Positions 12,851 through 62,887 are shown, counted from the first letter of the stretch. The stretch: 64,000 bases of DNA from Blastocatellia bacterium (GCA_035331565.1 DAOLKO010000004.1:239802-303801); one strand, 5' to 3'. Translations and numbers: made by a program. The notes: a model not told the origin generated them from the letters alone.

Positions 12851-12872
12851 TGAATTTTATAGGAGAGTAACC

Positions 12873-15879: not shown

Positions 15880-15909
15880 CTGTTCCCGCCAACTCTTGCC
15901 AATCAACCT

Positions 15910-15971
15910 GATGTTGGGACACTTTTGGAGTGCGGTTGCTTGAAACCGCACTCCAAAAGTGTCCCAACATC
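15910..15971. terminator. 27-bp-stem palindrome between convergent genes (bidirectional terminator candidate)
   Basis: GATGTTGGGACACTTTTGGAGTGCGGTT gcttgaa AACCGCACTCCAAAAGTGTCCCAACATC, immediately 3' of the minus-strand BNR protein gene. Confidence 0.5.
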
Positions 15972-15995
15972 AGCGGCGGTACTGATTCGGCTATT

Positions 15996-25405: not shown

Positions 25406-25433
25406 AAACTTTTCTCCTTAACAATCCGGCATT

Positions 25434-25667
25434 TAGACAGGATTGACAGGATTTTTTCGGGATTGACAGGATGCCTTTATAGCTTTCAAGAAAATGTTTT
25501 CCACGAAGTCACACGAAGCTTCACGAAGAAAAACCAAATTTCTCTGATTCCACTCTTCGTGGTTTCTTCGTGTGGCTTCGTGGAGGGAAACTCTTTTTCT
25601 TAGTGGCTGTCGGCGAGCTTTTTGCCGATCCCGTCAATCCTGTGACAAATCCTGTCAATCCTGTCTA
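25434..25667. repeat. composite palindromic element: about 40-bp inverted arms with GATTGACAGGAT repeats flanking MITE-like element copy B (25488-25610)
   Basis: Left arm TAGACAGGATTGACAGGATTTTTTCGGGATTGACAGGAT. The reverse complement of the right arm is TAGACAGGATTGACAGGATTTGTCACAGGATTGACGGGAT. The inner element is CAAGAAAATGTTTTCCACGAAGTCACACGAAGCTTCACGAAG...CTTCGTGTGGCTTCGTGGAGG. It lies between two ADOP genes, immediately upstream of the 25405 start. Confidence 0.65.
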
Positions 25668-25686
25668 TTCCGCCTTGCTTTTTGCA

Positions 25687-28107: not shown

Positions 28108-28141
28108 CTTTATCTCCTCAAGGTGAACCGCCGAAAAACTT

Positions 28142-36897: not shown

Positions 36898-39318
36898 GTG
36901 AAAATGAATTCGCTTTGGCAAGACTTGCGCTATGGCGCGCGAATGTTACTGAAACGACCCGGCTTCACGTTGATCGCCGTGTTGACGTTGGCATTGGGCA
37001 TCGGCGCGAACACTGCAATTTTCAGTGTCGTGAATGCCGTGTTGTTGCGCCCGCTGCCTTACCCGGAATCGGAGCGTCTGGTGATGGCGTATCTGTCCAA
37101 TCCGCAAGGGCAAAAGCGCGCCAATTTGGGAATGGCGGACTTTTTGGCCGTCCGCGAACGCAATCAGAGTTTCGAGAAAGTGGCGATGTTTACTTTCGGG
37201 CAATTCGCGTTCACGGGCGGCGAACAGCCGGAGCAAATTTCAGGTGCCTGGGTGAGCGCGGATTTTTTCGCCACGTTGGGCGTCGCGCCGGCACAGGGGC
37301 GCGCTTATCAGGCCGAAGACGAGCGACCGGAAAATGCGCGTATGGTCGTCATCAGCGACGGATTTTGGCGGCAGCGGCTGGCGGCGGATTCGCAGGTGAT
37401 CGGCAAAACGATCACGTTGAACAGCACGCCGCACACGGTCATCGGCGTGATGCCGAAGAACTTTCATTTCCCGCTGACGCCCGAAGCTGAATTGTGGCCG
37501 GTGCGGGCGATTCGTCCGGCGACGAACCGCCCGCCTTATTTCAATCGTTGTGTTGGACGGTTGAAACCGGGCGTGAGCGAAGAGCAGGCGCGGGCGGATT
37601 TGAGCGCCATCGCCGCGCAGGTGCATCAGCAGTTTCCCGAATCGCCTTTTGGTGCGATGACCACACGGCCATTGATCGCTTCGGTGGTGGGCGATGTGCG
37701 CCAGGCATTGCTGTTGATTTTGGGCGCGGTGGCGTTTGTGTTGTTGATCGCGTCGGCCAACGTTGCCAATTTGCAACTGGCGCGCGCGGCTTCGCGCGAA
37801 CGCGAGATGTCTGTGCGGTTGGCGTTGGGTGCGAATCGTTGGCGGATCGTGCGGCAATTGCTGACGGAAAGCCTGTTGCTGGCCGCGATAGGCGGTCTGG
37901 CGGGTTGGGGCCTGGCGTTCTGGGGAGTTGATCTTTTCCGCGCGCTCGGCCCTGTGGATTTGCCGCGCTTGCAGGAAGTCAGTCTGGATGGGCGCGCGCT
38001 TGGGTTCACCATGCTGGCGGCGCTCGTTAGCGGATTGCTGTTCGGACTTGCGCCGGCCTTGCAATCCTCGCGAATGGATTTGAACGAATCGCTCAAGGAA
38101 GGCGGTCGCGCGGGCAGCGAAGGTCGCGGACGCCGGCGTGTGCGCGGCTTGCTGGTGGTTGCTGAAATGGCGCTGACGCTGGTGCTGCTGGTCGGCGCGG
38201 GATTGTTGCTGCGCAGCTTCCTGCACTTGCAGGAAGTCAACCCGGGTTTCAATCCGAAGGGATTGCTGACCGCGCAGGTTTCGCTGCCGCAGGCGCGTTA
38301 CGGCGAAGAGCAAAAGATCATAGCCTTTCATCGCGAATTGATGACGCGCGCGAAAAGCCTGCCGGGCGTGCAGTCCGTCGGCATCAGCATGAGTTTGCCG
38401 CCGAACCTGCTGGAAATCAGCAATCCTTTCGCCGTCGAAGGCCGCCCGCCCGCGCCCGGACAAGCGCGTCCGCTGGCAGAGGAAATGACCATCAGCCCGG
38501 ACTATTTCACCGCGCTCGGCGTGCCGCTGCTGCGCGGACGCTTTTTCAACGACGCCGACAAAGAAAACATTTTGATTATCAACGAAGCCATGGCGCGCCG
38601 TTACTTTCCGAACGAAGACCCTGTCGGCAAGCGATTACAAACAGGCGACCCCAGTCCGAACAGTCCCTGGGAAACGATTGTCGGCGTGGTCGGCAACGTG
38701 AAATACACAGGGCTGGACGCTGACGACTCGCCGACAATGTACGTGCCTTACACGACGCCCGGCTGGGCTTCGTGGTCGCGTTCAATGTATCTGGTCGTGC
38801 GCACGACGGGCGCTCCATCGAGCTTGGCGTCCGCGTTGCGCCGCGAAGTCAACGCACTGGACGGCGACCTGCCGTTGACCAATGTCCGCGCGATGGAGCA
38901 GGTGATTCACGAATCGGTCGCCGAGCCGCGTTTTCGCACTTCGCTGCTGGGCTTGTTCGCGGCGGTGGCTTTGCTGTTGGCGGGCATAGGCATTTACGGT
39001 GTGATCTCGTATGCAGTCACCGAACGCAGGCACGAAATCGGCATTCGGATGGCGCTGGGCGCGCAACGTGGCGATGTGATGCGGCTGGTGGTCAAACAAG
39101 GAATGCTGCTCGCCGGCGTCGGCATCGCCATCGGTTTGGCTGCTTCGTTGGCGTTGACGCGGCTGATGAAGACTTTGCTTTTCGGCGTCAGTGCGACTGA
39201 TCCGCTGACCTTCGGCGGCATCGCGCTGTTGTTGGCGCTTGTGGCGTTGGCGGCTTGCTGGATTCCGGCGCGACGCGCGACGAAAGTTGATCCGATGATT
39301 GCGTTGCGATGCGACTGA
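36898..39318 (+). CDS. ADOP-family ABC transporter permease
   Basis: [43 protein letters not shown]; 806 aa; GAGGTG RBS. Confidence 0.85.
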
Positions 39319-39459
39319 TTGGGGCGAACGCGGCTGCTCGTCAGGCGGGTTGGTACTTTTTCGGTGGGTGTTTTTGAAAGTGCAACAACAGTTTGCGTTG
39401 ATTGATTGCGCCCTTTCGATTCAAGTCCAACTCCGCGACAGTGGCGCGTCCGGTCGGAG

Positions 39460-39780
39460 TCAGGCCGATGATGATTGCAAAGTCATCGCTCCAGGCAAAG
39501 TGTTCGTGCCAGTCGTGCCGGCGCGGATGTTAAAGCGGGACGGATTCCTGGCTAATCGGATCAATCGCGTAGTCTTGTTGTATTTGTGGTTGTTACACCG
39601 CTGGCAGGCTCGCGCGAGGTTTTCCGCAATGCTTTTGCCGCCGACTGAAAGCGGGTTGATGTGCTCGGTGGAGAAAGCGTCCGGGCCGTAATCTTCCTGA
39701 CAGATGCAATATTCACAGCATCCTCCCGCGCGTTCTTTAACCAACTGCCGGAGTTTGGTTGGAATTCGGTGTTTAGTCAT
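39460..39780 (-). CDS. HNH endonuclease
   Basis: HNH motif CEYCICQ...EHINPLSVGG...NLARACQRCNNHK. Start MTKHRIPTK at 39780; 8-bp overlap (ATGACTAA) with the upstream partner gene. Confidence 0.75.
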   Translation of the reverse strand: MTKHRIPTKLRQLVKERAGGCCEYCICQEDYGPDAFSTEHINPLSVGGKSIAENLARACQRCNNHKYNKTTRLIRLARNPSRFNIRAGTTGTNTLPGAMTLQSSSA

Positions 39781-40162
39781 GAGGCACTGGTTTGATGCCA
39801 AGCTGCCGCATCAATTCATCGAGTGTGACACTGCGCAACATCGCCAGTTGGGCCAGGCATTGCAACCGCTCGACGCCGATCTCTTCGGATTGATCCGTGA
39901 GTCGGATCAATTCTTCAAGTTCAGCAGGAGTAATGACGCCTTCTCCGCGCCTCTCGATCAATTTGTTCATTCGCCGGCGCGCCGGAGGCGGGAGGTCTTG
40001 ATTGATTTTGAGCAGCAGTCCGGTTTCAGCTTCGGATAGGTTGGGGGTTTCTTCTCGCGCCTTAAGAGCAAAGAGTTTGGCGGCGAATCGGTCAAACTCC
40101 TGACGCGGCAATTGCAACGCGGCGTTCAAGATTTGTTCGGGTTCAATTTGAATGGTTGGCAT
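39773..40162 (-). CDS. small helical protein translationally coupled to the HNH endonuclease (function unknown)
   Basis: MPTIQIEPEQILNAALQLPRQEFDRFAAKLFALKAREE... Its stop overlaps the HNH start. The start coordinate is approximate (about 40159-40162). Confidence 0.4.
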   Translation of the reverse strand: MPTIQIEPEQILNAALQLPRQEFDRFAAKLFALKAREETPNLSEAETGLLLKINQDLPPPARRRMNKLIERRGEGVITPAELEELIRLTDQSEEIGVERLQCLAQLAMLRSVTLDELMRQLGIKPVPHD

Positions 40163-40231
40163 AACGCTGACTCCTGATTTCGGTAACGCGCCAAATAATA
40201 AACTGCTCCGCGCGACATTGGCGAACAAAAC

Positions 40232-40310
40232 GAGGTGTGAAATGAGGAGATTGGCGCAAACTCTTTAGCAAGACTTGCGCTACGGCGAGCGAATGCTGAT
40301 AGCGGGATGA
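40232..40310 (+). pseudogene. relic 5' end of an ADOP permease gene (RBS + about 20 codons, in-frame stop)
   Basis: GAGGTGTGAAATGAGGAGATTGGCGCAAACTCTTTAGCAAGACTTGCGCTACGGCGAGCGAATGCTG aligns with the ADOP4 start region (GAGGTGAAAATGAATTCGCTTTGGCAAGACTTGCGCTATGGCGCGCGAATGTTACTG). It translates to MRRLAQTL*QDLRYGERMLIAG*. Confidence 0.6.
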
Positions 40311-40418
40311 TGCTGCTGCTGACTGCGCTCCGCAGGGAATGATGAAATCGTCGAACTGCAACGCGAGGGGACGATCATCAAAACGACAAAGATTGACAGC
40401 GAATGGGAGGATTTACAG

Positions 40419-42905
40419 ATGAACGGGTTTTGGCAGGATTGGCGATTCGGTTTGCGGATGTTGCTTAAACGTCCCGGCTTTACGTTTGTCGCCGCGTTGA
40501 CGCTGGCCATCGGCATTGGCGCGAACACGGCGATTTTCAGTTTGCTGGACAAACTGCTGTTGCGAACGTTGCCGGTCAAAGACGCCGAACAGTTGGTGTT
40601 GATTACGGCGGAAAGCGTCAATCCGAAGTTTCTCAACAACATTTTCTCTTACCCGGACTTCAACGATTACCGCGACCGGAGTCAGGAGTTGTCCGGGTTG
40701 TTTGCTTTCATTCAGGTGCAAACCAAATTCGGCACAGTGGACGATGCGCCGAACCTGCGAACGGAATTGGTTTCGGGAAATTACTTCGACGCGCTGGGCG
40801 TGACTGCCGCCAATGGCCGCGCCATCGGTATGGAAGATGAAAAGGAAGAAGGCGCACATCCAGTGGCGGTGCTCAGCCACGCCGCCTGGCAACGGCGATT
40901 CGGTTCCGCGCCGAACATCGTCGGGCAGCAGATTCAGCTCAACGGCGTGAAGCTGACCGTCATAGGCGTTGCGCCGCGCGAATTCGCCGGGATGAAGCTC
41001 GAAAATCCAACCGAAGTTTGGGTTCCGCTGATGATGCGACGCGACTTACTGGAAGCGACCGGTTCCATTCGCGAACGCCGTCTGTCCTGGCTGATGCTGG
41101 CCGGCAGGCTGAAACCCGGCGTGCCGCTGGAGCATGCGCGAGCCGGACTGGATTTGCTGGCGCGCAACATTCGCGACGCCAATACGTCGCCCGAACAACG
41201 CAACGTTCCTTTTTACGAAAAGCGCATGCTGATGGAACCGGGCGGCAGGGGAATTTCCTACCTGCGCAAGAATCTGGATCAACCGCTGATGTTGCTGATG
41301 GCGATTGTCGGTTTATTGCTGCTGATTGCCTGCGCCAATGTCGCCAATTTGCTGATGGCGCGCGCCACCACTCGGCACAGGGAAATCGCCGTTCGGTTAG
41401 CATTAGGCGCAAGCCGTTGGCAAATCGTCAGGCAGTTACTGGTAGAAAGCTGGTTGCTGGCCGGCATTGGAGCCGTGGCTGGAATGCTGTCTGCGCCGTG
41501 GCTTTATGAATTGCCGCTGCTGTTTCAACCCAATCTGGCCGTGACGCAAACGGTTTTTGAATCCAGTCTGGACAGACGTGTGCTGGCCTTCACGCTCTTG
41601 CTGACGGCGTTGACCGGAACGATTTCCGGTCTGGCTCCGGCCTGGCAAAGCGCGCGCTTCGATCTGGTCCCGGCGTTGAAAGACGCCGACGCGAATCTGC
41701 ATTCGCGCGAGCGCCGGTTCAACGTTCGCAATCTGCTGGTGGTCGGGCAAATCGCGCTTTCGCTGGTAATGGTCATCGGCGCGGGCTTGCTGGTGCGCAG
41801 CCTGCAACGGCTACTGGCCGTGGATACTGGCTTTCGGGCGGAAAACGTACTGGTTGTGCCGGTGGAATTGCCGCGCGAAAAGTTCAATGGCGTGGGCAGT
41901 CGGGAAGAGTTTCTGCGCGGGCAGGATGAAAAGAACAATGCTTTCTTTCGTCAGGCAGTGGAACGCGTTCGCGCGCTGCCCGGCGTCGAAGCCGTCAGCA
42001 CCGCAGGCATTACGCCGATGAGCGGATCGTTTATGTCCATGAGCGCGAAGATCGAAGGTTGGCAACCCAAGCCCGGCGAAAATCTGGCGATTGACGCCAA
42101 CAAAGTGGGGCCGGGCTATCACGAGTTGATGGGCACGCAAATCATCGAAGGACGCGGTTTCACTGAACAAGATCGCGCGGGCGCACTCGGCGTCATCATC
42201 ATCAACGAAACGATGGCGCGCACGTTTTTCCCGAATCAAAATCCGCTTGGCAAACGCATCAACGACCGCGAAATCGTCGGCGTGGTGCGCGACGCCAAAA
42301 TGCGCACACTGACCGACGCGCCCATTCCGCATTTCGATTTGCCCGCCTTGCAGGATACGTATGGAAGCTTCGCACGACTGGTCGTGCGCGCTAAAGGCCG
42401 GCCGGAAGCTTTGATTCCGGCGGTGCGCAGCCAATTACGCGCGTTGAATTCCAACGTCGCACTCGACGGCGTGACCACGCTTTCGCAAGAGCTGAACAAC
42501 TCCATCGCGGCGACGCGAATGGCCACAAGCTTGACCGGCTTGTACGGCTTGATGGCGCTGCTGCTGGCGGCGATTGGTTTATATGGCGTGATGACTTACG
42601 CCGTCAGCCGCCGCACGCGCGAAATCGGCGTGCGAATGGCGCTCGGCGCGCAAGGCCGCGACGTGCTGCGAATGGTCATCGGGCAAGGCATGTCGCTGGC
42701 GCTGATCGGCATTGCGGTTGGCGTTGCGGCTTCGCTGGCGCTGACGCGGCTGATTCAAAGCTTGCTGTTTCAGGTCAAAGCTACTGATCCGTTGACGTTC
42801 GCGGCGATTACCGGATTGCTCGTCGCCATCGCGGCGTTGGCGTGTTACCTGCCTGCGCGTCGTGCAACCAAAGTTGATCCGATGGTTGCCTTGAAATGTG
42901 AGTAA
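40419..42905 (+). CDS. ADOP-family ABC transporter permease
   Basis: [41 protein letters not shown]; 828 aa. Confidence 0.85.
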   Translation: MNGFWQDWRFGLRMLLKRPGFTFVAALTLAIGIGANTAIFSLLDKLLLRTLPVKDAEQLVLITAESVNPKFLNNIFSYPDFNDYRDRSQELSGLFAFIQVQTKFGTVDDAPNLRTELVSGNYFDALGVTAANGRAIGMEDEKEEGAHPVAVLSHAAWQRRFGSAPNIVGQQIQLNGVKLTVIGVAPREFAGMKLENPTEVWVPLMMRRDLLEATGSIRERRLSWLMLAGRLKPGVPLEHARAGLDLLARNIRDANTSPEQRNVPFYEKRMLMEPGGRGISYLRKNLDQPLMLLMAIVGLLLLIACANVANLLMARATTRHREIAVRLALGASRWQIVRQLLVESWLLAGIGAVAGMLSAPWLYELPLLFQPNLAVTQTVFESSLDRRVLAFTLLLTALTGTISGLAPAWQSARFDLVPALKDADANLHSRERRFNVRNLLVVGQIALSLVMVIGAGLLVRSLQRLLAVDTGFRAENVLVVPVELPREKFNGVGSREEFLRGQDEKNNAFFRQAVERVRALPGVEAVSTAGITPMSGSFMSMSAKIEGWQPKPGENLAIDANKVGPGYHELMGTQIIEGRGFTEQDRAGALGVIIINETMARTFFPNQNPLGKRINDREIVGVVRDAKMRTLTDAPIPHFDLPALQDTYGSFARLVVRAKGRPEALIPAVRSQLRALNSNVALDGVTTLSQELNNSIAATRMATSLTGLYGLMALLLAAIGLYGVMTYAVSRRTREIGVRMALGAQGRDVLRMVIGQGMSLALIGIAVGVAASLALTRLIQSLLFQVKATDPLTFAAITGLLVAIAALACYLPARRATKVDPMVALKCE

Positions 42906-42925
42906 CCGAAAGAAGGGGAATCTAC

Positions 42926-45328
42926 GTGCAAAACTTATTTCAAGACCTGCGTTACGCTTTACGGACTTTGTTGGGCAAGCCGGGGTTCAGCGTGATCGCC
43001 ATCATCACGCTGGCGTTGGGCATCGGTGCCAACACTGCAATTTTCAGCGTCATCAATACAGTGTTGCTGAAACCGCTGCCTTACAAGGACGCCGACCGGC
43101 TGGTGGCCGTGTGGGGCAAACTGTTGAGAACGGATCAGGTTGAATTGTCGCCGCGAGAGATGGCGGACTTTCGCGAACGTAGCCGCGTCTTCGCGCAATT
43201 CGCCGCTTCGGAACGGTCGAATCTGAATCTGACCGGCAACGGCGACCCAGTGCGATTGGAAGGACAGGCCGTCACCGCGAATATGTTTTCGATGCTGGGC
43301 GCATCGCCGCTGCTGGGACGGACGTTCACAGCGGAAGAGGATAAGGCCAATGCGCGCGTTGCGGTTTTGAGCTACGGTTTGTGGCAAAAACGGCTGGGCG
43401 GAAAAGCTGACGCCGTCGGCAAACCCATATTGCTGGACGGCAAAAGTTACGAAGTCATCGGCGTGATGCCGGGCGAATTTCAATTTCCGCCGCCGGGAAC
43501 GAACAACTTGCCGGGCGAAATCTGGGTTCCGCGTTCGCTGGAAACCGAAACGCGACTGGACGCTCACAACCTGTTTGCCATCGGTCAGCTCAATGCCGGC
43601 GCGACTTTTGCGCAGGCGCGCGCCGAAATGGACGGCATCGTTAGGCAGCGCGAACAGGAAGATTCCCGGCGGCAAGGAACAGGCTTCAATCTGGTTCCGT
43701 TGCAAGCGCAGGTGGGGCGACAGCTTCGCCCGGCGCTGTTGATTCTGGCCGGAGCCGTGGGTTTCGTGTTGCTGATTGCCTGCGCCAACGTCGCCAATTT
43801 ACTGCTGGCATCGGCTTCAGTGCGACAAAGGGAAATCACCATTCGACTGGCGCTCGGCGCAAGTCGCCTGCGCATTGTCCGGCAATTGTTGACGGAAAGC
43901 CTACTGCTGTCGTCGCTCGGCGGCGGCCTGGGATTGCTGCTGGCTGTGTGGAGCAGCGAAGCCATTCGCGCGCTGGGCGGCACACAGATTCCGCGCGCCG
44001 ACCAAATCGGCTTAGATGGCGTGGCGCTCGGCTTCACCTTTTTGCTTTCGATGCTGACGGGCGTTGTTTTCGGACTCGTTCCGGCGCTGCAGGCTTCGCG
44101 CGCCGATTTGAACGGAACCTTGAAAGAAGGCGGCAGAAGCGGTGCCGCCGGCGGACGCCATCGCTTGCGAAGCGCGCTGGTCGCGGTCGAAATCGCGCTG
44201 TCGCTGATGCTGCTGGTGGGCGCGGGACTGCTCATCAAAAACTTCCGGCAGTTGTTGAATACCGATCCGGGCTTCAACACGCGGAACCTGTTGTCGCTGG
44301 AAGTGGCTTTGACCGGCGAACGCTACGGCGACAGTCGGCAGCGGTCGGCCTTTTATCGGCAGGCGCTGGAACGCCTTTCAAGCCTGCCCGGCGTGCAAGC
44401 GGCAGCGGCCGTCAATCATCCGCCCTTTTCCGGTCGCCGAGGCATCAACGTGTTCAGAATCGAAGGCCGCCCGGAACCGACCGGAATGAGCGATACGCCG
44501 CTGGCCGATTTCCGCGTCATCAGTTCGGGCTATTTCCGTATGATGGACATTCCGGTGTTGCAAGGTCGCGCGTTCAATGAATCCGACGGAGCGGACGCGC
44601 CGCGCGTGGCAATTGTCAATCAGGCTTTCGTTCAGCGTTTTCTGCCGGGCGAAAATCCGCTGGGGCGACGGCTGAGCGGAGGCAACGAATGGGTGACGGT
44701 GGTCGGCGTGGTCGGCGATATTCGACAATCGGGATTGGATCAGGAAACCGCGCCGCACGTTTACGCGCCCTACCTGCAATTGCCCGCCGGACGCTCCGGG
44801 ATTTTACTGCGCACTTCGGTTGACCCGCTGAGTCTGGCGGCGACGGTTCAAAAACAAGTGAACGCGGTTGATCCTGACCTGCCGATTTATAACCTTCACG
44901 CAATGGACGAATTGATTGCCGATTCGATGGCCGGACGGCGGCTGAACCTGGTGCTGCTGACAGTGTTTGCCCTGACGGCGCTGGCGTTAGCCGCGGTGGG
45001 CATTTACGGAGTGATTTCGTATTCGGTGTCTCAACGCGCGCGGGAAATCGGCATTCGTCTGGCAATCGGCGCACAGCGCGCTGACGTGCTGAAACTGATT
45101 GTCCGGCAGGGAATGATTCCGGTGGCGATTGGAATGGCGGCGGGAATTGCCGGCGCGTTGGCATTGGCTCGCGTGGTCGCCACGCTGCTGGTCGGTATCA
45201 GTGCCAATGACCCGATCACCTTCGCGGCGATTGTGATCTTGCTTGCAACGGTGGCGCTGCCGGCCTGTTTCATTCCCGCGCGACGAGCGACCAAAGTGGA
45301 TCCCATCATCGTTTTGCGCGCTGAATGA
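42926..45328 (+). CDS. ADOP-family ABC transporter permease
   Basis: [41 protein letters not shown]; 800 aa. 20-nt gap from the previous paralogue. Confidence 0.85.
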   Translation: MQNLFQDLRYALRTLLGKPGFSVIAIITLALGIGANTAIFSVINTVLLKPLPYKDADRLVAVWGKLLRTDQVELSPREMADFRERSRVFAQFAASERSNLNLTGNGDPVRLEGQAVTANMFSMLGASPLLGRTFTAEEDKANARVAVLSYGLWQKRLGGKADAVGKPILLDGKSYEVIGVMPGEFQFPPPGTNNLPGEIWVPRSLETETRLDAHNLFAIGQLNAGATFAQARAEMDGIVRQREQEDSRRQGTGFNLVPLQAQVGRQLRPALLILAGAVGFVLLIACANVANLLLASASVRQREITIRLALGASRLRIVRQLLTESLLLSSLGGGLGLLLAVWSSEAIRALGGTQIPRADQIGLDGVALGFTFLLSMLTGVVFGLVPALQASRADLNGTLKEGGRSGAAGGRHRLRSALVAVEIALSLMLLVGAGLLIKNFRQLLNTDPGFNTRNLLSLEVALTGERYGDSRQRSAFYRQALERLSSLPGVQAAAAVNHPPFSGRRGINVFRIEGRPEPTGMSDTPLADFRVISSGYFRMMDIPVLQGRAFNESDGADAPRVAIVNQAFVQRFLPGENPLGRRLSGGNEWVTVVGVVGDIRQSGLDQETAPHVYAPYLQLPAGRSGILLRTSVDPLSLAATVQKQVNAVDPDLPIYNLHAMDELIADSMAGRRLNLVLLTVFALTALALAAVGIYGVISYSVSQRAREIGIRLAIGAQRADVLKLIVRQGMIPVAIGMAAGIAGALALARVVATLLVGISANDPITFAAIVILLATVALPACFIPARRATKVDPIIVLRAE

Positions 45329-49197: not shown

Positions 49198-49244
49198 CGG
49201 CGCAAATACAAAACCGCGCTCCAATTTGTGTTGAAGCGCGGTTT
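49198..49244 (-). terminator. Rho-independent terminator of atpC
   Basis: On the minus strand, stem AAACCGCGCTTCAACAC...GGAGCGCGGTTT is followed by TTTTGTATTTG, 24 nt after the atpC stop. Confidence 0.6.
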
Positions 49245-49267
49245 GGTGGTTGTGATTAAACTTCAGC

Positions 49268-54767: not shown

Positions 54768-55748
54768 TCAACCGGCTGCGGCTGGCTGACAATCCTGGCT
54801 GATGAGAGCGGCGGCCAGCAATGGGATCATCAATTCGTGATGTCCTGTGATGCCGTAGCCTTTCCCGGCTCCGTTGGCCACGGGGCGGCGCACGACATTG
54901 GTTTGCGGGCGGTAATGTTGCAGGAAGTCGAAATTCGCGGTGGTGAAATCCTGAAGCGAATGCCCCAGGTTGCGCACGACCGTGACGGCTTTCAAAAAGA
55001 TTTCCGGCAGCGTCACCGCCGAACCCAGGTTCAGATAAACGCCGCCGCCGTCCAATCCGCGAACCAGCGAAGTGAAAAGTTTGAAGTCGCGGTAACTGGC
55101 CGCGCCCAGCGCCGCGCCGTCGGCGTGCGGGTGAATGTGAATGATGTCAGTGCCGATGGTGATGTGCGCCGTCACAGGCACGCACAGTTTGTAAGCTTCG
55201 TGCAGCAGCGAGAATTCGCCGTGCGGGGGCTGCAGTTCAACCAAAAATTGGCCGACCGCTTCGCCGATGCCGCAATCTTCGGCAGCACCGCGTTTGATGG
55301 CCTGATTCAACAGGCGTCCGGTTTCTTCGGCCATTCCAAACGCGCCGGAACCGAGTGCGCTGTCCACGTCTTCCGAAGTCCAACCGGCCAGCGCAATCTC
55401 GAAATCGTGAATAACGCCGGAACCGTTGGTTGCCAGCGCCGTGACGAAACCGCGCCGCATCAAGTCAATCAGCACGGGAGCTAACCCGGTTTTGATGACG
55501 TGGCCGCCGAATCCCCAAATGATGGCGCGGCCTTTGGCTTTGGCTTCGATGATGGCAGCCACCACAGCGCGCAGGCTTTCCGCCGCCAATAGATTCGGCA
55601 GCGAATCCAGCAACGCGACGGCGGCGCGCGCCTGTTCGTCGGTCAGCGGTTTGGCAAAATCGCGCACGGTCACTTTGCTCGGTCTTTCGTGAAGCGAGTA
55701 AGTGGCGATGCGGGAAAACTCAATCGGGTCTTGGTTGTAAATGGACAT
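54768..55748 (-). CDS. deoxyhypusine synthase-like (DHS-like NAD-binding fold) protein
   Basis: IIWGFGGHVIKTGL...ATNGSGVIHDFEIA and LDGGGVYLNLGSAVTLPE resemble DHS/homospermidine-synthase family motifs. Start taken at MSIYNQDPIEF. Confidence 0.4.
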   Translation of the reverse strand: MSIYNQDPIEFSRIATYSLHERPSKVTVRDFAKPLTDEQARAAVALLDSLPNLLAAESLRAVVAAIIEAKAKGRAIIWGFGGHVIKTGLAPVLIDLMRRGFVTALATNGSGVIHDFEIALAGWTSEDVDSALGSGAFGMAEETGRLLNQAIKRGAAEDCGIGEAVGQFLVELQPPHGEFSLLHEAYKLCVPVTAHITIGTDIIHIHPHADGAALGAASYRDFKLFTSLVRGLDGGGVYLNLGSAVTLPEIFLKAVTVVRNLGHSLQDFTTANFDFLQHYRPQTNVVRRPVANGAGKGYGITGHHELMIPLLAAALISQDCQPAAAG

Positions 55749-55814
55749 TGCGCCGCTTGTTATCGCAGCGCCAAGTTGAAAGTCAAGACAGGAAAAATCC
55801 GGCAAGTCGAACGA

Positions 55815-55952
55815 TCTATAACCTTCAAGAAAATGTTTTCCACAAAGCCACACGAAGCTTCACGAAGAAAAACAACAATCATTTGAGTACTCCCTTCGTG
55901 TTTTCTTCGTGCGGCTTCGTGGAAGGAAAATGTTTTTCTTGATGTCTATAGA
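55815..55952. repeat. MITE-like palindromic element, copy C (CACGAAG-motif family)
   Basis: TCTATAACCTTCAAGAAAATGTTTTCCACAAAGCCACACGAAGCTTCACGAAG...CCCTTCGTGTTTTCTTCGTGCGGCTTCGTGGAAGGAAAATGTTTTTCTTGATGTCTATAGA: about 55-bp inverted arms. It sits at the left edge of the defence island. Confidence 0.65.
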
Positions 55953-56062
55953 ACGCCGCCGAATCGGTCAGTCTGACGAATTCGCCTTTCTCGATTTCGC
56001 GTGGTAGTCTCTGCCCCGTTTTGCTCACCCGCCAGTGATGGCAACTCCTTTTTGAAGGTTCA

Positions 56063-57262
56063 ATGATGGAAGATTTTTCGGCAAACGCATCCGCGCTTGG
56101 ATACTTTTATCAGTCTCGCTACGCCCTGTTTTTGCTGCTTTCGCGTGCAGAGGCGGATGCGGAACTCTGCGTCGAGCGGCTGGACGATATTTCTTTCGAG
56201 CGCGACGGCAGCGCCATCGAATTGCTGCAAACCAAACATCACATCAAAGCCACGGCCAGCCTGTCGGACGCCAGCACCGCGCTTTGGAAAACTTTGCGCG
56301 TGTGGAGCGCGGCATTGGTCGAAAACAAAATCCGTCCGGGCGAAACCATCCTGACGCTGGTCACCACTGGACGCGCGCCCAAAGATTCCGCCGCCGCCAA
56401 ATTGCGCCCGCACCCAACGCGCGACCGCGACCACCAAGCGGCGTTGAAGATTCTGCGCGAAGTCGCAGACCAATCCGACAGCCGAACGAACCGTCCGGCT
56501 TACGAAGCCTTTCGCAATCTTTCCGACCGCCAGCAAAGCGAACTGGTAATGAGCATTCAATTGCTGGATGCCTCGCCGAACATCCTGGACACGGGCGGGC
56601 GCATTCTGGATCAACTGCGTCTTAGCACTCGCCCACAGTTTCTGGAAGCTGTTTACGAGCGCATTGAAGGCTGGTGGTTCAATCGGCTGATTCAGCATCT
56701 TTCCGCCGATTCCACCGCGCCGATTCTTTACAGAGAGTTGCTGGATCAGATCAACGACCTTCAAGAGCAATACCACACGGACAATTTGCCGATTGAGTTT
56801 CTGCCGATTGAGTTTCTAGATGCCATCGCGCCGGACGAGCAAAAGCTAGGCGCGAAAGAACGGCTCTTCATCGAACAGCTTCGGCTGGTGGCAGTCGCCG
56901 CGCCGCGCATTCGCAAAGCGATCAACGATTATTACCGCGCGTTTCAACAACGCTCCAAATGGGTGCGCGAAGATTTACTGCTGGTGGGCGAACTGGAAAC
57001 TTACGAACGGCGGCTGGTGGACGAATGGGAAAGACTGTTTGAACGAATGAAAGAAAACCTCGGCGACCACGCGGAGGAAACCACGCTTCAACACGAAGGC
57101 CGCGCGCTGTTCAATGCCGTCGAAGACCTGGAACTGAACATTCGCCCGCGCTGCAACGAACCCTACATAATGCGCGGCAGCTTTCACCTGCTGGCCAATC
57201 AACTGCGCGTCGGCTGGCACGCGGACTTCGTTCAACGGCTCAATCAATTACTGACAACCTGA
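56063..57262 (+). CDS. lmuA: Lamassu/ABC-3C effector: Cap4-like (DUF4297-type) PD-(D/E)XK nuclease N-terminal domain + helical C-terminal domain
   Basis: N-terminus ...LGYFYQSRYALFLLL...VERLDDISFE...IELLQTKHH carries D/E-x-K nuclease residues in a DUF4297-like arrangement. 399 aa; first gene of a three-gene cluster. Confidence 0.5.
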   Translation: MMEDFSANASALGYFYQSRYALFLLLSRAEADAELCVERLDDISFERDGSAIELLQTKHHIKATASLSDASTALWKTLRVWSAALVENKIRPGETILTLVTTGRAPKDSAAAKLRPHPTRDRDHQAALKILREVADQSDSRTNRPAYEAFRNLSDRQQSELVMSIQLLDASPNILDTGGRILDQLRLSTRPQFLEAVYERIEGWWFNRLIQHLSADSTAPILYRELLDQINDLQEQYHTDNLPIEFLPIEFLDAIAPDEQKLGAKERLFIEQLRLVAVAAPRIRKAINDYYRAFQQRSKWVREDLLLVGELETYERRLVDEWERLFERMKENLGDHAEETTLQHEGRALFNAVEDLELNIRPRCNEPYIMRGSFHLLANQLRVGWHADFVQRLNQLLTT

Positions 57263-57267
57263 AGCAT

Positions 57268-57357
57268 CTTTGGAGTGCGACGGCGTCGGCGTCGCTTTGG
57301 TAGTCCTTCTTGTCGAACGACTATGAAAGCTACGCCAACGCCGTCGCACTCCAAAGG
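57268..57357 (+). other. 25-bp inverted repeat hairpin between lmuA and lmuC
   Basis: CTTTGGAGTGCGACGGCGTCGGCGT ... ACGCCAACGCCGTCGCACTCCAAAGG, within the operon spacer. Confidence 0.45.
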
Positions 57358-57374
57358 CTCAATCTGAAAACACC

Positions 57375-57860
57375 GTGAATTCCTGGGAAACAAGACCGAC
57401 TGAAATTGCGCATTTGCTGAACCCTGCGTTTTGCGGCGAATTGCTGCGCCGCGTCATTCGCACGCACAACGCCGTCAGCCCGCGACTGATTCCGTTTCCG
57501 CTGCTGTTTTTGGCGCTGCCGGTGGTGCTGCATCGCGAAACGCGCGAAAGCATTTCCGCTACGACCAAAGAGCAAATGCACGTCTGGCTGCAAGATCGTC
57601 AGCACCTGCGTTTGGGCTTTGCCGAACGGGCGAAGAATCTGGTTCCGATCACTCGCGAAGCCATTGCCTTTCTGCTGCAAATCGGCGCAATTGCCGTGGA
57701 CGAACGCGCGGGCGTGCGGTTGACGCGCTACGTGGCGCGGCAGGTTCCGGTCAGCGAGGAAATCACCGATTGCCAAAAGAAGGCTGAAATTCTGGGGCGC
57801 TGGTTCGCCCGCGCCGGTGCGCCGGCGGCGATTTATACGATGTGGGGAGTGAAACCTTAA
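57375..57860 (+). CDS. lmuC: Lamassu/ABC-3C middle component (small helical protein)
   Basis: 161 aa, alpha-helical, no enzymatic motif. It ends 5 nt before the ABC ATPase start. Confidence 0.4.
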   Translation: MNSWETRPTEIAHLLNPAFCGELLRRVIRTHNAVSPRLIPFPLLFLALPVVLHRETRESISATTKEQMHVWLQDRQHLRLGFAERAKNLVPITREAIAFLLQIGAIAVDERAGVRLTRYVARQVPVSEEITDCQKKAEILGRWFARAGAPAAIYTMWGVKP

Positions 57861-57864
57861 CGCG

Positions 57865-59817
57865 ATGCAAATTCTGGAAATTGTTCTTTACGGACGGCAA
57901 GGCCAAAAGCGCGTGCTGCCGCTCCAGGCCGGCAAGACCAACATCATCACGGGCGGTTCGGCAACGGGCAAATCCGCGCTGATTCAAATCGTTGATTACT
58001 GCCTGGGGCGCGGCGAATGCACCGTCCCCGAAGGCGTCATTCGCGAATCCGTCTCCTGGTTCGGGCTGCGTTTGCAGTTCGCGTCGGGACAGGTTTTCGT
58101 TGCGCGGCAAAATCCTCCCAAAGGCCGCACGACGACCAACCGCGCTTACTTTGAAGAAGGCACAATCGTTCCCAGCCCCGACGCGCCGCCCGCGCAGCCG
58201 AACACCGTTATCGAAGCTCTGGAAGATTTGCTGACCGACAAACTCGGCATTGCGCCGAACATGAACTTCCCCGCGCCCGGCCAAACACGTTCGCCGCTGG
58301 CGGCCAACATTCGCCACGCTTTGGTTTATTGTTTTCAACAGCAAAGCGAAATCGCCTCGAAAGACGTGCTTTTTCACGGCCAGTATGACGGCTGGGTCGC
58401 GCAAGCCATCAAAGACACCATCGCCTATTTCCTCGGTGCGATTCAGGAAGACCGTCTGGCGCTTGAACAGGAACTTGCCCGCGCACGCCGCGAACTCAAA
58501 CGCGCCGAACAATCCCTGCGCGAAGCCGAAGCCATCACCGGCGACGGCGTCAGCAAAGCCGGCAGCCTGTATCAGGAAGCCCGTCATGTCGGCCTGCTTC
58601 CGGATGAAACGATTCCCGAAAACCTGGAAGTCTTACGCACGAGATTGCAGGAAGTGCTGCGTTGGACGCCGGAGGCCGACAGCTTTCCCGGTTCGGAACG
58701 GCTGACGCAGTTTCAGGAAGAAGTCCGCACCTTGCAGATTCAGGCGCGCGAAAAAGCAGACGCCGCGAACGCCGCGCGCAGCTTCGCGCAGGAAGCCGAA
58801 GGTTACCTTGCCGAGGCCCGACAGCAGGAACTGCGACTGGAATCCATCGGCCTGTTCGACGCCGGCAAACAAAACGCCCACGCCTGCCCTGTTTGCACGC
58901 AGGAACTGGACGTGCCTGTTCCGACGGCGGAAGCCATGCGCCGTTCGCTGGAACAACTGAAAGCCAATCTGGAAAATACCGTCCGCGAACGCCCACGCTT
59001 GCGCCGGCACATCGAAAGTCTGGAAAAGGAACGCGAAGAAATCCGCCAACGCATTCGCGAAAAGAACGAAGACATACGCAGCCTGCTCGCGGAACAGCAA
59101 GCCGCCGCCCAATTGCGCGAACTGAACGTTCGCCGTGGCAGAGTGATTGGCCGCATCAGCCTGTGGCTGGAAAGCGTGGACACCGCCGACACCACTTCGC
59201 AACTGCGAGAAGACGTGCGCCAAAAACACGAACGCGTCGCCACACTGGAACAACAACTGGAAGACGGCGAGAAACAGGAGCGGCTGTTTTCCATCCTGAA
59301 CCGCATCGGCGTGCAGATGACCGATTGGGCGAACAATCTGGAATTGGAACACAGCCGCAATCCGGTGCGGCTGGATTTATCGAAGCTGACCGTGCTGGTG
59401 GATCGCGACGACCGCCCCATCCCGCTCAACCACATGGGCAGCGGCGCGAATTGGGTGGGCTTTCATTTGATTGCGCACTTGGCGTTGCACAGGCATTTCG
59501 TCCAACACGGACGGCCTGTTCCCGCGTTTCTGTTTCTCGATCAGCCTTCGCAGGTTTATTACCCGCCCGACAAAGACACGGAGTTGCAAGGTTCGCTGGC
59601 CGGCATCGGTGACGAAGATCAATTGGCCGTGTCGCGTATGTACAACCTAATTTTCGATGTGGTCGAAAACCTGTCGCCGAACTTTCAGGTGGTCGTCACG
59701 GATCACGCGGATTTGGCTGAGGCACGTTTTCAATCTGTGATTGCCGAACGCTGGCGCGGCGGTCAGGCGCTGGTTCCGCAGGACTGGATCAATGTCGCCG
59801 AACCGCCGGAAGCGTAG
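57865..59817 (+). CDS. lmuB: Lamassu/ABC-3C SMC-like ABC ATPase with coiled-coil and zinc hook (LmuB/DdmC-like)
   Basis: Walker A ITGGSATGKSALIQIVDYCL. Long coiled coil carrying CPVC (HACPVCTQ), a Rad50-like zinc hook. C-terminal FLFLDQPSQVYYP Walker B/D-loop, as in DUF3732. Confidence 0.6.
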   Translation: MQILEIVLYGRQGQKRVLPLQAGKTNIITGGSATGKSALIQIVDYCLGRGECTVPEGVIRESVSWFGLRLQFASGQVFVARQNPPKGRTTTNRAYFEEGTIVPSPDAPPAQPNTVIEALEDLLTDKLGIAPNMNFPAPGQTRSPLAANIRHALVYCFQQQSEIASKDVLFHGQYDGWVAQAIKDTIAYFLGAIQEDRLALEQELARARRELKRAEQSLREAEAITGDGVSKAGSLYQEARHVGLLPDETIPENLEVLRTRLQEVLRWTPEADSFPGSERLTQFQEEVRTLQIQAREKADAANAARSFAQEAEGYLAEARQQELRLESIGLFDAGKQNAHACPVCTQELDVPVPTAEAMRRSLEQLKANLENTVRERPRLRRHIESLEKEREEIRQRIREKNEDIRSLLAEQQAAAQLRELNVRRGRVIGRISLWLESVDTADTTSQLREDVRQKHERVATLEQQLEDGEKQERLFSILNRIGVQMTDWANNLELEHSRNPVRLDLSKLTVLVDRDDRPIPLNHMGSGANWVGFHLIAHLALHRHFVQHGRPVPAFLFLDQPSQVYYPPDKDTELQGSLAGIGDEDQLAVSRMYNLIFDVVENLSPNFQVVVTDHADLAEARFQSVIAERWRGGQALVPQDWINVAEPPEA

Positions 59818-59824
59818 CTAAGGT

Positions 59825-59974
59825 GAAGCCTGTGCAAATTGAAGTCTCACGCAAAGCCGCGAAGACGCAAAGACTGGAAGGGAAAAGGACTCACCTAAAC
59901 CTCTTTCTTCTTTTTCTCTTTGCGGCTTTGCGTGAACCTGTTGATTCCATTCAAGTTTAATTTGCACAGGCTTC
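59825..59974. repeat. nested palindromic element between convergent defence operons
   Basis: Outer inverted repeat GAAGCCTGTGCAAATTGAAGT / ACTTCAAGTTTAATTTGCACAGGCTTC and inner inverted repeat TCACGCAAAGCCGC / GCGGCTTTGCGTGA, separated by a CT-rich core. Confidence 0.5.
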
Positions 59975-59998
59975 AGTTATGGTGCTGAAGTTTCGGCT

Positions 59999-62173
59999 TT
60001 ACAGCACGATGTCTTCGAGGTCTTGCAGCGGATGATAGTCAAACATCTCAACCGGCAATATCGCTGCTTCGCCTGCCAAACGACGATTGGGACGACGGCG
60101 TCCGAGGTTCACTCTCATCAGGGGATCACATTCGCTTAAAGGTTTGGCATCGTCGCCGTAGGTGAATAGAAGCCCTGTCAGCCGCTCGATTTCGCCGATT
60201 TTGACTTGATAGTGCTGATAAGGGCCGAAAGGATCGGTCACGGCTTCGATTCCGAAGCGGGCAATCACTTCGTCCTGGCTGGCGATGTAAGCGGTCGCAA
60301 ACAAGTCGCCATTGGATTTCAGCGCGGCGACTACCTTCCAGTATTGCAACGGATACTGAATGCCTTTGTACACAGGATCGCCGGGATCAAGCACAGGGCC
60401 TGTAATCACCTGCGCGTCGAAGTTTCCTTCCAAAATGCTCGTCTCCAAAATGTACCTTTCGATGCCCTGCCAGATTTCTTTATTTTGATTGAACTTCTCG
60501 TGCTGCGGCGTGCAGTTGGTCCAATGACAGGTGTCTCCGGCGGATTGAAGCGCTTCTACCGGAGTCTTGCCGAATTCCAGGTCTTCGCGCCGCGTCAGAT
60601 GTCCCCGATCGAACTTGTTGTTCGTGTAATACCAATTTTGGATTTGGTATTCCCCCTTGATGCGCGGATCAACGCGCCATACATCGGCTGGGCGGCTCAT
60701 TTCGTAACGTTCGGCAAACCGCAGATTGGCGGCGCTGTAAATCGCGAACTTGCGTTTGGCGTGCATCACCACGCTGTAGTTGTTGTAATGCAGTAAGTAT
60801 TCGTCCGGCGCGGCGATCAGACTCACGGCTTCGGCTTCCAGCGCGTCCGTCAATGTCGGGAAGTTGACCTTCTTTGCGCCCGCTCCGAGGAACTCCGGGT
60901 TGTAGCCCTGGCGCTTGCTGTAATCCGAATCGAACGGCGCATCAAACCTGGGCGCACGAGCGGCGTCATTGCGTTCCAGCATGAACCCAGCCGACTCGCG
61001 CGCCGTCCGCGCCACCGAAGCGCCCACAGTGGAAACGACTCCAGCGGCGTCAAGATTGAGAGTGACTTCCACGGGAACTGTGATTGTTTGCGTGTTGCTC
61101 ATAACTTTGATCTCCGTTTTTACTGAGGGTTGAACTTTGTTGTTTCCGGCGCAAGCTCTGCGCGCTTCTCCAATGCGCGCGCCGGCCGGAGTCGCCGCAA
61201 ACAAGGGTTGCAGCAAAGGATGATCGGGAAGCGCCTGCTTCAACGTTTGCGCGATGCGGCTGGCGCGAATGCCTTCGTTGGCGATCCATTTAATGTCACG
61301 CTCGTCCATGGTGTCTGGATCGAAATCGCGCCCGTCCACAGTTTGAATAACGCCGTTGCGCCTTTCAGGCACGCCGCTGTGATGCAGCGCCACCACGTAC
61401 CAATCGTTGTCGAAAACCGGTGCCCCGGAAGAGCCTGGAAGCGTGTCGGTGGAGTACCAGAGCACATCATCTGCACGTTTGATCAGGCGGTTTTCGCGCA
61501 CACACAGTTGCTTTCGTTCACCTGAAGGATGCTGAACAATGGTCAGCCATTCGCCTTCCAATGCCTTGCCCGGCACGGCCAGCAAGGGCAAAACCCCATA
61601 CTCCGAAAGCAGGGTTTCGCCGTCGCGCGAACGCTCTTCGACGGCCACCACTGAAAAATCCAGTGCCGGAGAGGTGAAAAAAAGTCTTTGCGGTGCCAAC
61701 GCAAACCGAACCGGCCCGACGGGGTTGTCGTCCAAATCGGTTTCGTAATGAAACTGCGCTTCGGAAGCAATCGCGGCGGACGCATTGCCGAAGACATGGT
61801 TGTTGGTAATCAGCACGCCCGGCGCGATCAGAAACCCGGTTCCCCAACCCAGGTGCGCGCCGGACGGATTGCGAATCTCGATGCGGGCAACGGCTCTGAC
61901 GGCCACTTCGCCGCGCGCCAGATAGCTTGCGGGTTGCAATTCGTTCCCGTCCAGCAACCGTTCCAGCGTCTGATCGGCAAGCCGGCGATCTCCCAAAGCT
62001 TCCGTCAGGAAGAATTGCCGCGACCGCACCTGCTCGCCGGTAACAAATTCTTTCGGAAGCTTGTCTTTTCTTTCGGCAATCAGGTCATCAATTTCCAGAC
62101 CTGCCGCCCGCCGCATCGCTTTTCGGATTTGAGACTCGATGATGCTCATAAAACGGCCCACGGTATTAGACAA
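59999..62173 (-). CDS. fusion protein: trypsin-like serine protease domain + DNA/RNA non-specific (EndoG/Serratia-type) nuclease domain
   Basis: N-terminal half has chymotrypsin-fold motifs GWGTGFLIAPGVLITNNHVF (His) and TLPGSSGAPVF (GDSGGP-like Ser). C-terminal half has the NUC beta-beta-alpha-Me motif FDRGHLTRREDL and downstream Asn. 724 aa. Confidence 0.6.
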   Translation of the reverse strand: MSNTVGRFMSIIESQIRKAMRRAAGLEIDDLIAERKDKLPKEFVTGEQVRSRQFFLTEALGDRRLADQTLERLLDGNELQPASYLARGEVAVRAVARIEIRNPSGAHLGWGTGFLIAPGVLITNNHVFGNASAAIASEAQFHYETDLDDNPVGPVRFALAPQRLFFTSPALDFSVVAVEERSRDGETLLSEYGVLPLLAVPGKALEGEWLTIVQHPSGERKQLCVRENRLIKRADDVLWYSTDTLPGSSGAPVFDNDWYVVALHHSGVPERRNGVIQTVDGRDFDPDTMDERDIKWIANEGIRASRIAQTLKQALPDHPLLQPLFAATPAGARIGEARRACAGNNKVQPSVKTEIKVMSNTQTITVPVEVTLNLDAAGVVSTVGASVARTARESAGFMLERNDAARAPRFDAPFDSDYSKRQGYNPEFLGAGAKKVNFPTLTDALEAEAVSLIAAPDEYLLHYNNYSVVMHAKRKFAIYSAANLRFAERYEMSRPADVWRVDPRIKGEYQIQNWYYTNNKFDRGHLTRREDLEFGKTPVEALQSAGDTCHWTNCTPQHEKFNQNKEIWQGIERYILETSILEGNFDAQVITGPVLDPGDPVYKGIQYPLQYWKVVAALKSNGDLFATAYIASQDEVIARFGIEAVTDPFGPYQHYQVKIGEIERLTGLLFTYGDDAKPLSECDPLMRVNLGRRRPNRRLAGEAAILPVEMFDYHPLQDLEDIVL

Positions 62174-62179
62174 GATGAC

Positions 62180-62887
62180 TCAGCCTTTGCGGCTCTTGAC
62201 GGCTTTCTTGGCGCTTTTTTTCTTTGCAGGCGGAGTCGCGCCAAGAGGATTGCCGTTGTTGTCCGTCTTGAAGGTTTGCGATTGAAAGGCGAGGAAAAAC
62301 GCGCGCCATTTGTCGCCGGGGTATTGAATGAAAAGCGCGCCGTCCTGAAACGCGCCGTTGTCTTTCTTCCATTTCCCGGAATTCCCCTGGTTCATGTGGA
62401 TGTCGTGAATGCCGTTGCCCGGCTTGAACTTGAAGTATTTGTCGGCCTTGTTGTTTTCAGGCCCCCATTTTTCGCCGAAGGCATAAAGCATGGAGCCGGG
62501 TTCGGCCAAAGCTTTGATGATGGCGTCTTCGAGTTTGTCTTTGAGGTCATTGTCCGGGCCTTCGGATTCAGGCGGAACAGGTTTCATATTGGCGGGATTG
62601 ACCAACCCTCCGCGAACGTAATCCTGAGCTAGCCCGCCGGCTTTCGAGGCGAGCTTTTTATAACCGGCGTTCAGGGCGCTCAGCCCTGTTTTCAATTCGG
62701 CGGGAAGTGTCGTCGAGGTGGCATACAACAAATCGGACGGCGCGTTCTCGGCGGCGGACTTTACGTTCACCGCTATTCGGTACAACGTGTTGCCTGCTTT
62801 GATCAGAATTTGATAGTGGTCATCGTCGGCATTCCTCAAATGACCGATCACAGTTCCTTTGAGGACACCGTAGTTTTTGAGTGGCAT
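62180..62887 (-). CDS. YukJ-like (DUF2278) protein
   Basis: N-terminus MPLKNYGVLKGTVIGHLRNADDDHYQILIKAGNTLYRIAVNVKS...LLY resembles the DUF2278/YukJ pattern. Lys-rich C-terminal tail. 7 nt upstream of the protease-nuclease gene. Confidence 0.4.
   Translation of the reverse strand: MPLKNYGVLKGTVIGHLRNADDDHYQILIKAGNTLYRIAVNVKSAAENAPSDLLYATSTTLPAELKTGLSALNAGYKKLASKAGGLAQDYVRGGLVNPANMKPVPPESEGPDNDLKDKLEDAIIKALAEPGSMLYAFGEKWGPENNKADKYFKFKPGNGIHDIHMNQGNSGKWKKDNGAFQDGALFIQYPGDKWRAFFLAFQSQTFKTDNNGNPLGATPPAKKKSAKKAVKSRKG

Follow-up and report, generated by a model that had tools for sequence, protein, structure and literature searches.

The operon analyzed here lies in a 64,000-nucleotide (nt) stretch of DNA from a Blastocatellia bacterium (Acidobacteriota), hereafter the window, in which coordinates count from the first letter. 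Our data indicate with high confidence (probability about 0.93) that it encodes a short, type II (three-gene) Lamassu / ABC-3C anti-phage system with the gene order lmuA-lmuC-lmuB. We make this assignment because every defining feature that could be tested was found: LmuA combines an N-terminal effector domain with a family-specific docking C-terminal domain, the middle-component gene lmuC stands between the effector and ATPase genes, and the three genes are co-directional, tightly linked and kept in this arrangement in relatives. All three open reading frames (ORFs) are intact (Table 1). The gap between lmuC and lmuB is 4 nt and that between lmuA and lmuC 112 nt, and the GTG start of lmuC is conserved in relatives. 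The original prediction had placed an effector, a small protein and an ATPase at 56063-59817 and likened them to the DdmABC/LmuACB arrangement of Lamassu/ABC-3C; exact ORF coordinates, PADLOC assignments of the three genes to LmuA, LmuC and LmuB, and homology to proteins of solved structure all agree with it. No match above threshold was found for any of the three proteins in NCBIfam.

LmuB matches the PADLOC LmuB profile PDLC03859 (E=4.2e-141) and, over amino acids (aa) 459-637, the Pfam family DUF3732/LmuB_C (E=3.1e-52). It aligns end to end with LmuB of Salmonella enterica (9hqu_A; 9HQU/9HQX; E=2.1e-72) and with LmuB/DdmC of V. cholerae (9NY5, 9NYG, 9UXH, 9UXK; 9ny5_D, E=5.9e-61), and its matches to PDB sequences at E<=0.01 comprise only LmuB and DdmC, with no Rad50, SbcC or RecN chain. 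When checked for clustering with RecF, RecN or SbcC, the ATPase instead groups with the solved LmuB/DdmC structures, and its association with an effector is present.

The sequence motifs of LmuB are likewise those of the family. The Walker A GGSATGKS and a coiled coil carrying CPVC had both been recognized in the original prediction, and the latter motif, which occurs once in the protein, aligns with the CPMC zinc hook of Salmonella LmuB. CPVC is a putative zinc hook, being a CxxC at the coiled-coil apex that is conserved in orthologues (as CP[VI]C in L007, L131, L132, L008 and L009); in Salmonella LmuB, the zinc hook is needed for phage protection (bioRxiv 10.1101/2025.03.14.643221). A C-terminal LDQPSQVYYP motif, also described previously, is present but is really a deviant Walker B, FLFLDQ followed by PSQVYYP (FLFLDQPSQVYYP, aa 555-567), which aligns with LILDQPSQVYFP of 9hqu_A. 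Short Lamassu systems typically have a deviant Walker B of the form hhhhD[Q/S/T/E] and an LmuB averaging about 600 aa (PMC12663957), and at 650 aa the window protein therefore falls in the short class. We read GSGANW, aligned with GSGSNW/GSGANW of solved LmuB proteins, as the ABC signature motif from its place ahead of the Walker B rather than from a tool result. The Walker A, the hhhhDQP Walker B, GSG[AE]NW and CP[VI]C are all kept in five LmuB relatives that are 59-95% identical to the window copy.

The remaining two proteins identify the system further. LmuC matches Pfam MC3 (PF20131) over its full length (E=8.1e-54), the PADLOC LmuC profile (E=1.7e-15) and Salmonella LmuC (PDB 9hqu_D, E=1.3e-5). 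LmuA matches the PADLOC LmuA profile PDLC03848 over aa 4-393 (E=5e-65) and, among PDB sequences, Salmonella 9hqu_C in two stretches (E=2.7e-14) and V. cholerae 9nxx_A over its full length (E=8.6e-07). Among 47 full-length homologues of LmuA, which are 49-90% identical, CTD7 is found in all 47 and Cap4_nuclease (PF14130, formerly DUF4297) in 15 (best E=1.1e-6); the PADLOC DUF4297 profile matches window LmuA at E=2e-4. An AlphaFold2 model built on the 47-homologue alignment (mean predicted local distance difference test score 85.8) was compared with PDB using Foldseek, and the top 16 matches were solved LmuA chains (9hr5_C best, E=2.8e-18; 9nxx, 9hqx, 9uxi, 9ny1 and others). These were followed by the Avs3 nuclease domain, CBASS Cap4 (7yia, 6vm5, 6wam, 6vm6), HerA-DUF4297 and Hachiman HamA, with a probability of 1.00 for Cap4 (7yia, 6vm5, 6wam), Avs3 and HerA-DUF4297. 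The assignment of LmuA to the Cap4 type follows from the PF14130 matches among its homologues together with this fold search, the direct Pfam match being sub-threshold.

The modeled LmuA N-terminus has a fold of the PD-(D/E)xK type, in which acidic residues and a putative catalytic lysine are conserved. E38, D41, D42 and Q56 are invariant in the 47 homologues and K58 is conserved in at least 90%, while E53 is not conserved. The Cap4/DUF4297-like nuclease of the original prediction is thus upheld by fold and by LmuA homology, but its D..E.K motif should be corrected to D...QxK. K58 aligns with the lysine that is replaced by alanine in the LmuA(KA) structures from Salmonella and, judging from its position and the full-length homology, is probably the counterpart of K57, which is essential in V. 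cholerae LmuA.

The lmuA-lmuC-lmuB order is shared by L001-L007, L009, L131 and L132, which between them represent at least three genomic contexts, and the window operon was found identical in six assemblies. LmuB identity to the window copy is 95% in L007, 89% in L131, 88% in L008, 83% in L132 and 59% in L009, and LmuA of L007 is 90% identical to window LmuA. The ratio of nonsynonymous to synonymous substitution (dN/dS) between the window and four relatives is 0.04-0.17 for all three genes (0.08-0.17 versus L007), and lmuA, lmuC and lmuB are under purifying selection. The RlmI-like methyltransferase and TonB-dependent receptor genes next to the window operon are also its neighbors in L131 and L008, whereas in L132 the operon occupies an entirely different context, which implies that the cassette moves between contexts. 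A tRNA scan of the whole window found none and so gives no hint of an integration site.

The lmuA-lmuC spacer contains a palindromic element whose arms (57268-57309 and 57315-57356) are 88% complementary and whose predicted minimum free energy is -70 kcal/mol, compared with -33 +/- 3.7 for dinucleotide shuffles (z = -9.9). A hairpin at this position had been predicted with 25-bp arms; the hairpin is real, but 25 bp describes only its basal part. In relatives the distance from the lmuA stop to the lmuC GTG is 10 nt (L007), 8 nt (L131), 12 nt (L132) or about 29 nt (L009), and the palindrome is absent from all four of these orthologous operons. Given such short, palindrome-free spacers, the roughly 100-nt block at about 57264-57363 is a lineage-specific insertion. 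It is identical and fixed in six independent assemblies of the species, and a short duplication of 5 bp, CTGAA (57259-57263 and 57364-57368), possibly borders it on both sides. Two interpretations of the hairpin were rejected: an intrinsic terminator, as no T-run/U-tract follows the stem on either strand, and a conserved Lamassu element, as the relatives L007, L131, L132 and L009 do not have it. Rfam returned nothing at gathering score over the whole window, and within 55500-60300 at E<=1 its only matches were far-sub-threshold miRNA precursors on both hairpin strands, which are generic long-hairpin artefacts.

The hairpin is instead a copy of a dispersed palindromic repeat, resembling repetitive extragenic palindromic (REP) sequences or miniature inverted-repeat transposable elements, with termini CTTTGGAGTGCG...CGCACTCCAAAG, and not a component of Lamassu. 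An initial metagenome pattern, GGAGTGCGACGGCG-N40-70-CGCCGTCGCACTCC, was too specific and found nothing, but the looser terminal pattern CTTTGGAGTGCG-N50-80-CGCACTCCAAAG then matched at least 120 unrelated contigs (L011-L130). Inside the termini, the metagenome copies agree on a consensus that was no part of the search pattern, ...GCGGCGnCttGnCgcCGCTTT ... AAAGCG... (...CGCTTT / AAAGCG...), and the window copy conforms to it. The inner arms, of which 81 distinct sequences occur among the matches listed, are 87% complementary within an element but 59% across elements, and this excess indicates that the hairpin is maintained while its sequence varies. No LmuA, LmuB or LmuC gene occurs in the 120 listed palindrome loci (683 kb in total). 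Common termini and inner consensus, compensatory variation and many unrelated genomic contexts, together with lmu-free loci and the absence of the element from related operons, are what identify the hairpin as a member of this repeat family.

Elements of the CTTTGGAGTGCG...CGCACTCCAAAG family measure 74-104 nt, and the family, which is common throughout soil bacteria, is extremely frequent among metagenome contigs (at least 120). In many copies the flanks are themselves complementary, such that the palindrome extends past the conserved termini. No published name for the family was found in the searches made. Its terminal motif TTGGAGYGCG occurs five times in the window versus 0.8 expected, including in two other palindromes, at 15908-15973 (perfect, with 30-nt arms) and 49203-49252; both probably belong, as shorter versions of the element, to one superfamily of dispersed repeats with it. 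A second family comprises nested intergenic palindromes of CACGAAG / CGCAAAG units (e.g., CACGAAGCTTCACGAAGAAA...TTTCTTCGTGNGGCTTCGTG). One of its copies lies upstream of lmuA and a related nested palindrome downstream of lmuB, so that, counting the spacer element of the first family, the operon is both bracketed and split by repeat elements.

A sister lineage also differs at the lmuA-lmuC junction. In L008 (L008:3709-4998), P0101 and P0091, LmuA from about aa 258 to 399 (CTD7) and the spacer have been deleted in frame, fusing the Cap4 domain to LmuC (MC3) at a junction common to all three (DAIAPAYNLIKNTVN). L008 and P0101 carry E38A and P0091 carries K58R, the catalytic positions being otherwise conserved; LmuB is intact in L008, where it was checked. 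Relaxed selection on the fused nuclease domain of L008 was considered and rejected, since its pairwise dN/dS (0.05-0.12) does not exceed that of intact relatives, and decay of the fusion is therefore not demonstrated despite E38A and K58R. The fusion represents either a decaying system or an architecture without the C-terminal domain (CTD) that is at odds with the release-and-tetramerise model described below; if such a CTD-less nuclease-LmuC fusion works, it would challenge that model.

Several observations weigh against the assignment of the window locus to a working Lamassu system. Of the two families anticipated in the original prediction, DUF3732 was matched strongly, but Cap4/DUF4297 falls below threshold on LmuA itself: the direct match to PF14130 is sub-threshold (E=0.012; 16.2 bits versus a cut-off of 26.2), and NCBIfam DUF4297_antiphage scores 20 bits against a curated threshold of 300. 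A scan for a sigma-70-like promoter upstream of lmuA found none, though such a scan may not suit Acidobacteria. The -70 kcal/mol hairpin stands where every relative examined has a tight lmuA-lmuC junction, and could lower LmuC and LmuB expression or shift subunit ratios. Furthermore, the insertion is recent (synonymous divergence from L007 is about 0.2-0.3), and purifying selection measured over the whole branch cannot prove that the operon is still fully functional. One rival explanation is a locus that is Lamassu by descent but crippled or re-tuned, in which the spacer palindrome uncouples expression of LmuC and LmuB, the subunits that sequester the nuclease, from that of the nuclease and leaves the system silenced, mis-stoichiometric or decaying. 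Relatives examined with separate lmuA and lmuC genes have a junction of 8-30 nt, and only this species has 112 nt and a stable hairpin; in addition, loss of CTD7 by in-frame deletion with E38A or K58R in L008, P0091 and P0101 implies that decay or remodelling happens in this clade. We nevertheless consider this explanation unlikely, because the three ORFs are intact with all motifs conserved, dN/dS versus L007 is low, the insertion is fixed and identical across the six assemblies, and a stem lacking a U-tract is not an intrinsic terminator. REP-type hairpins within operons are also usually tolerated.

Alternatively, the 650-aa ATPase could be a housekeeping repair protein of the Rad50/SbcC/RecN type with unrelated neighbors. 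An ABC head, a coiled coil and a CxxC hook are indeed shared with Rad50/SbcC, and Lamassu has been proposed to descend from SbcCD. This explanation is effectively refuted by the restriction of the PDB matches to LmuB and DdmC and by the DUF3732/LmuB_C C-terminal domain. NCBIfam SMC-type matches to LmuB lie far below their cut-offs, there is no Mre11/SbcD partner, and genes for MC3 and CTD7 proteins accompany lmuB at six further loci, whose genomic contexts differ. Profile scores similarly refute assignment to another defence system with an ABC or AAA ATPase (Gabija, Septu, PARIS, AbiL or AbiE-like): PADLOC gave weak matches to AriA, AbiLi and GajA (E=1e-3 to 3e-3), but these cover only the Walker A (P-loop) region and trail the LmuB match by more than 130 orders of magnitude, and the partner proteins are LmuA and LmuC.

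The palindrome within the operon is a curiosity in view of the report that hairpin-forming palindromes on plasmid or phage DNA trigger Lamassu/DdmABC (PMC11707656). At most, the element would perturb co-translation of lmuC with lmuA, and we think it unlikely that it has a functional role rather than being neutral. Were it to matter, three non-exclusive options can be considered. The palindrome could act as an RNA hairpin that regulates the LmuA:LmuC:LmuB ratio, via translation uncoupling or stabilisation of the lmuA message. It may be a cis DNA structure of which this Lamassu had to become tolerant. This Lamassu might also tell chromosomal palindromes from invader DNA, as suggested by a palindrome-rich host genome that still keeps Lamassu under purifying selection. 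A palindrome inside an operon whose relatives are palindrome-triggered is a natural test case for the avoidance of self-activation.

Beyond the operon, a two-gene cassette encoding DUF2278 and a Trypsin_2-Endonuclease_NS fusion lies between lmuB and the RlmI-like methyltransferase gene; it is absent at that position in L008 and L131. The fusion belongs to a large family (2193 matches). A cyanobacterium (L134) likewise has DUF2278 directly upstream of the fusion gene, unlike Mesorhizobium (L133), where the fusion gene adjoins a PDDEXK_GAPS4 gene, and Roseateles (L135). PADLOC gave no match for the cassette and nothing relevant was found in the literature on DUF2278; the pair is possibly an uncharacterised conflict or defence cassette. 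Elsewhere in the window, a run of ORFs of roughly 800-830 aa on both strands, within 22955-30586 and 36898-45328, suggests a paralogous gene family expansion.

Table 1. Coordinates of the Lamassu operon, its motifs and other features in the window.
Feature	Coordinates	Strand	Description and basis
lmuA	56063..57262	+	Effector, 399 aa, ATG start; ORF call, PADLOC, PDB alignment, AlphaFold2 fold
Cap4-type PD-(D/E)xK nuclease domain of LmuA (putative)	about aa 1-250	+	Homologues and fold search
Nuclease catalytic core of LmuA (putative), E38-x2-D41-D42...Q56-x-K58	56174..56236	+	Conservation in 47 homologues
CTD7 of LmuA, aa 269-392	56867..57238	+	Oligomerisation/docking; Pfam PF20283 E=1.9e-48, profile 1-125/126
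Palindromic element, lmuA-lmuC spacer	57268..57356	.	89 nt, 42-nt arms, 5-nt loop; repeat and fold analysis
lmuC	57375..57860	+	Middle component, 161 aa, GTG start; Pfam MC3, PADLOC, PDB alignment
lmuB	57865..59817	+	SMC/Rad50-like ABC ATPase, 650 aa, ATG start; PADLOC, DUF3732, PDB alignment
Walker A GGSATGKS (K36), aa 30-37 of LmuB	57952..57975	+	Fits the Gx4GK[ST] consensus published for LmuB; conserved in 5 relatives
CPVC putative zinc-hook motif, aa 341-344 of LmuB	58885..58896	+	Coiled-coil apex; aligned to Salmonella CPMC
ABC signature-like motif GSGANW of LmuB	59437..59454	+	Aligned to GSGSNW/GSGANW of solved LmuB proteins
Deviant Walker B FLFLDQ (aa 555-560) then PSQVYYP of LmuB	59527..59565	+	Motif match
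CACGAAG-core palindromes	12754-12851, 25500-25584, 55838-55924 (nested region 55812-55955)		Last in divergent intergenic region just upstream of lmuA
Related nested palindromes	59824-59975		Just downstream of lmuB
Trypsin_2 + Endonuclease_NS fusion gene	59999-62173	-	724 aa, no obvious signal peptide; second of two-gene cassette
DUF2278 gene	62180-62887	-	235 aa; first of two-gene cassette
ORFs of roughly 800-830 aa	22955-25405, 25687-28161, 28142-30586, 36898-39318, 40419-42905, 42926-45328		

A mechanism can be proposed for the window system from its homology to LmuACB of Salmonella and DdmABC of V. cholerae, both complexes of solved structure. A pair of LmuB protomers, linked through the CPVC zinc hook, would bind one LmuC and, via CTD7, one LmuA, which would be held as an inactive monomer in an LmuA1:LmuB2:LmuC1 complex. 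Binding of LmuB and LmuC to phage-derived DNA ends or replication intermediates would lead to ATP-driven head engagement and release of LmuA, which would then tetramerise through its C-terminal domain. Two Cap4-type nuclease domains, with K58 as the predicted catalytic lysine, would form one active site, and active LmuA would cut double-stranded DNA non-specifically, resulting in abortive infection. These steps have been demonstrated in the Salmonella and Vibrio systems (PMC12663957; bioRxiv 10.1101/2025.03.14.643221; 10.1101/2025.06.23.660979). The operon is an additional example of a well-characterised system and conceptually changes nothing; PADLOC-type annotation tools would label it automatically. 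With it, the clade of hook-bearing short Lamassu systems of the Cap4 type, for which structural work resolved the mechanism in 2025, gains a member from Acidobacteria (Blastocatellia).

The closest characterised relative is LmuACB of Salmonella enterica (9HQU, 9HQX, 9HR5; bioRxiv 10.1101/2025.03.14.643221), which gives the top PDB match for each of the three proteins. The two systems share their gene order, a Cap4-type nuclease with a C-terminal oligomerisation domain in LmuA, an LmuC of about 160 aa, and an LmuB of about 650-660 aa whose single CxxC hook falls at the aligned site (CPMC in Salmonella, CPVC here). They are nevertheless distant in sequence, with about 20% identity for LmuA (Foldseek) and only E=1e-5 for LmuC, and differ in that the window host is a soil Acidobacterium with a palindromic repeat inserted in its lmuA-lmuC spacer. 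DdmABC of V. cholerae (Lamassu Vc-Cap4; 9NY5, 9NYG, 9NXX, 9UXH-L; PMC12663957) is likewise a short type II system with a Cap4 effector, and resembles the window system in its full-length homology (LmuB E=5.9e-61, LmuA E=8.6e-7), its hhhhDQ Walker B and, probably, a catalytic lysine at nearly the same position (K57 versus K58 here). The main difference is that DdmC is without a zinc hook, whereas window LmuB keeps it.

Comparison can also be made with systems defined by domain content or fold. Among the ABC-3C systems of Pfam, a classification from the Aravind group, the window carries exactly MC3 and CTD7, both as full-length profile matches, and no difference was detected; the published Lamassu literature treats ABC-3C and type II Lamassu as synonyms. 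The same literature proposes the Rad50-Mre11/SbcCD lineage as the evolutionary origin of Lamassu. Rad50-Mre11/SbcCD resembles LmuB in its ABC ATPase head, antiparallel coiled coil and CxxC hook, but has no significant sequence match to it; the LmuB coiled coil is much shorter, its C-terminus is DUF3732, and its partners are LmuC and a Cap4 nuclease rather than an Mre11/SbcD phosphoesterase. Finally, CBASS Cap4, Avs3, HerA-DUF4297 and Hachiman HamA match the LmuA N-terminus in fold (7yia, 6vm5, 6wam, 8dgc, 9c1m, 8zue; E=1e-5 to 1e-3). Unlike CBASS Cap4 and other DUF4297 nucleases, the window nuclease is not accompanied by a SAVED, STAND or HerA partner, and LmuA would be activated by release from LmuBC and CTD tetramerisation rather than by a cyclic-oligonucleotide ligand.

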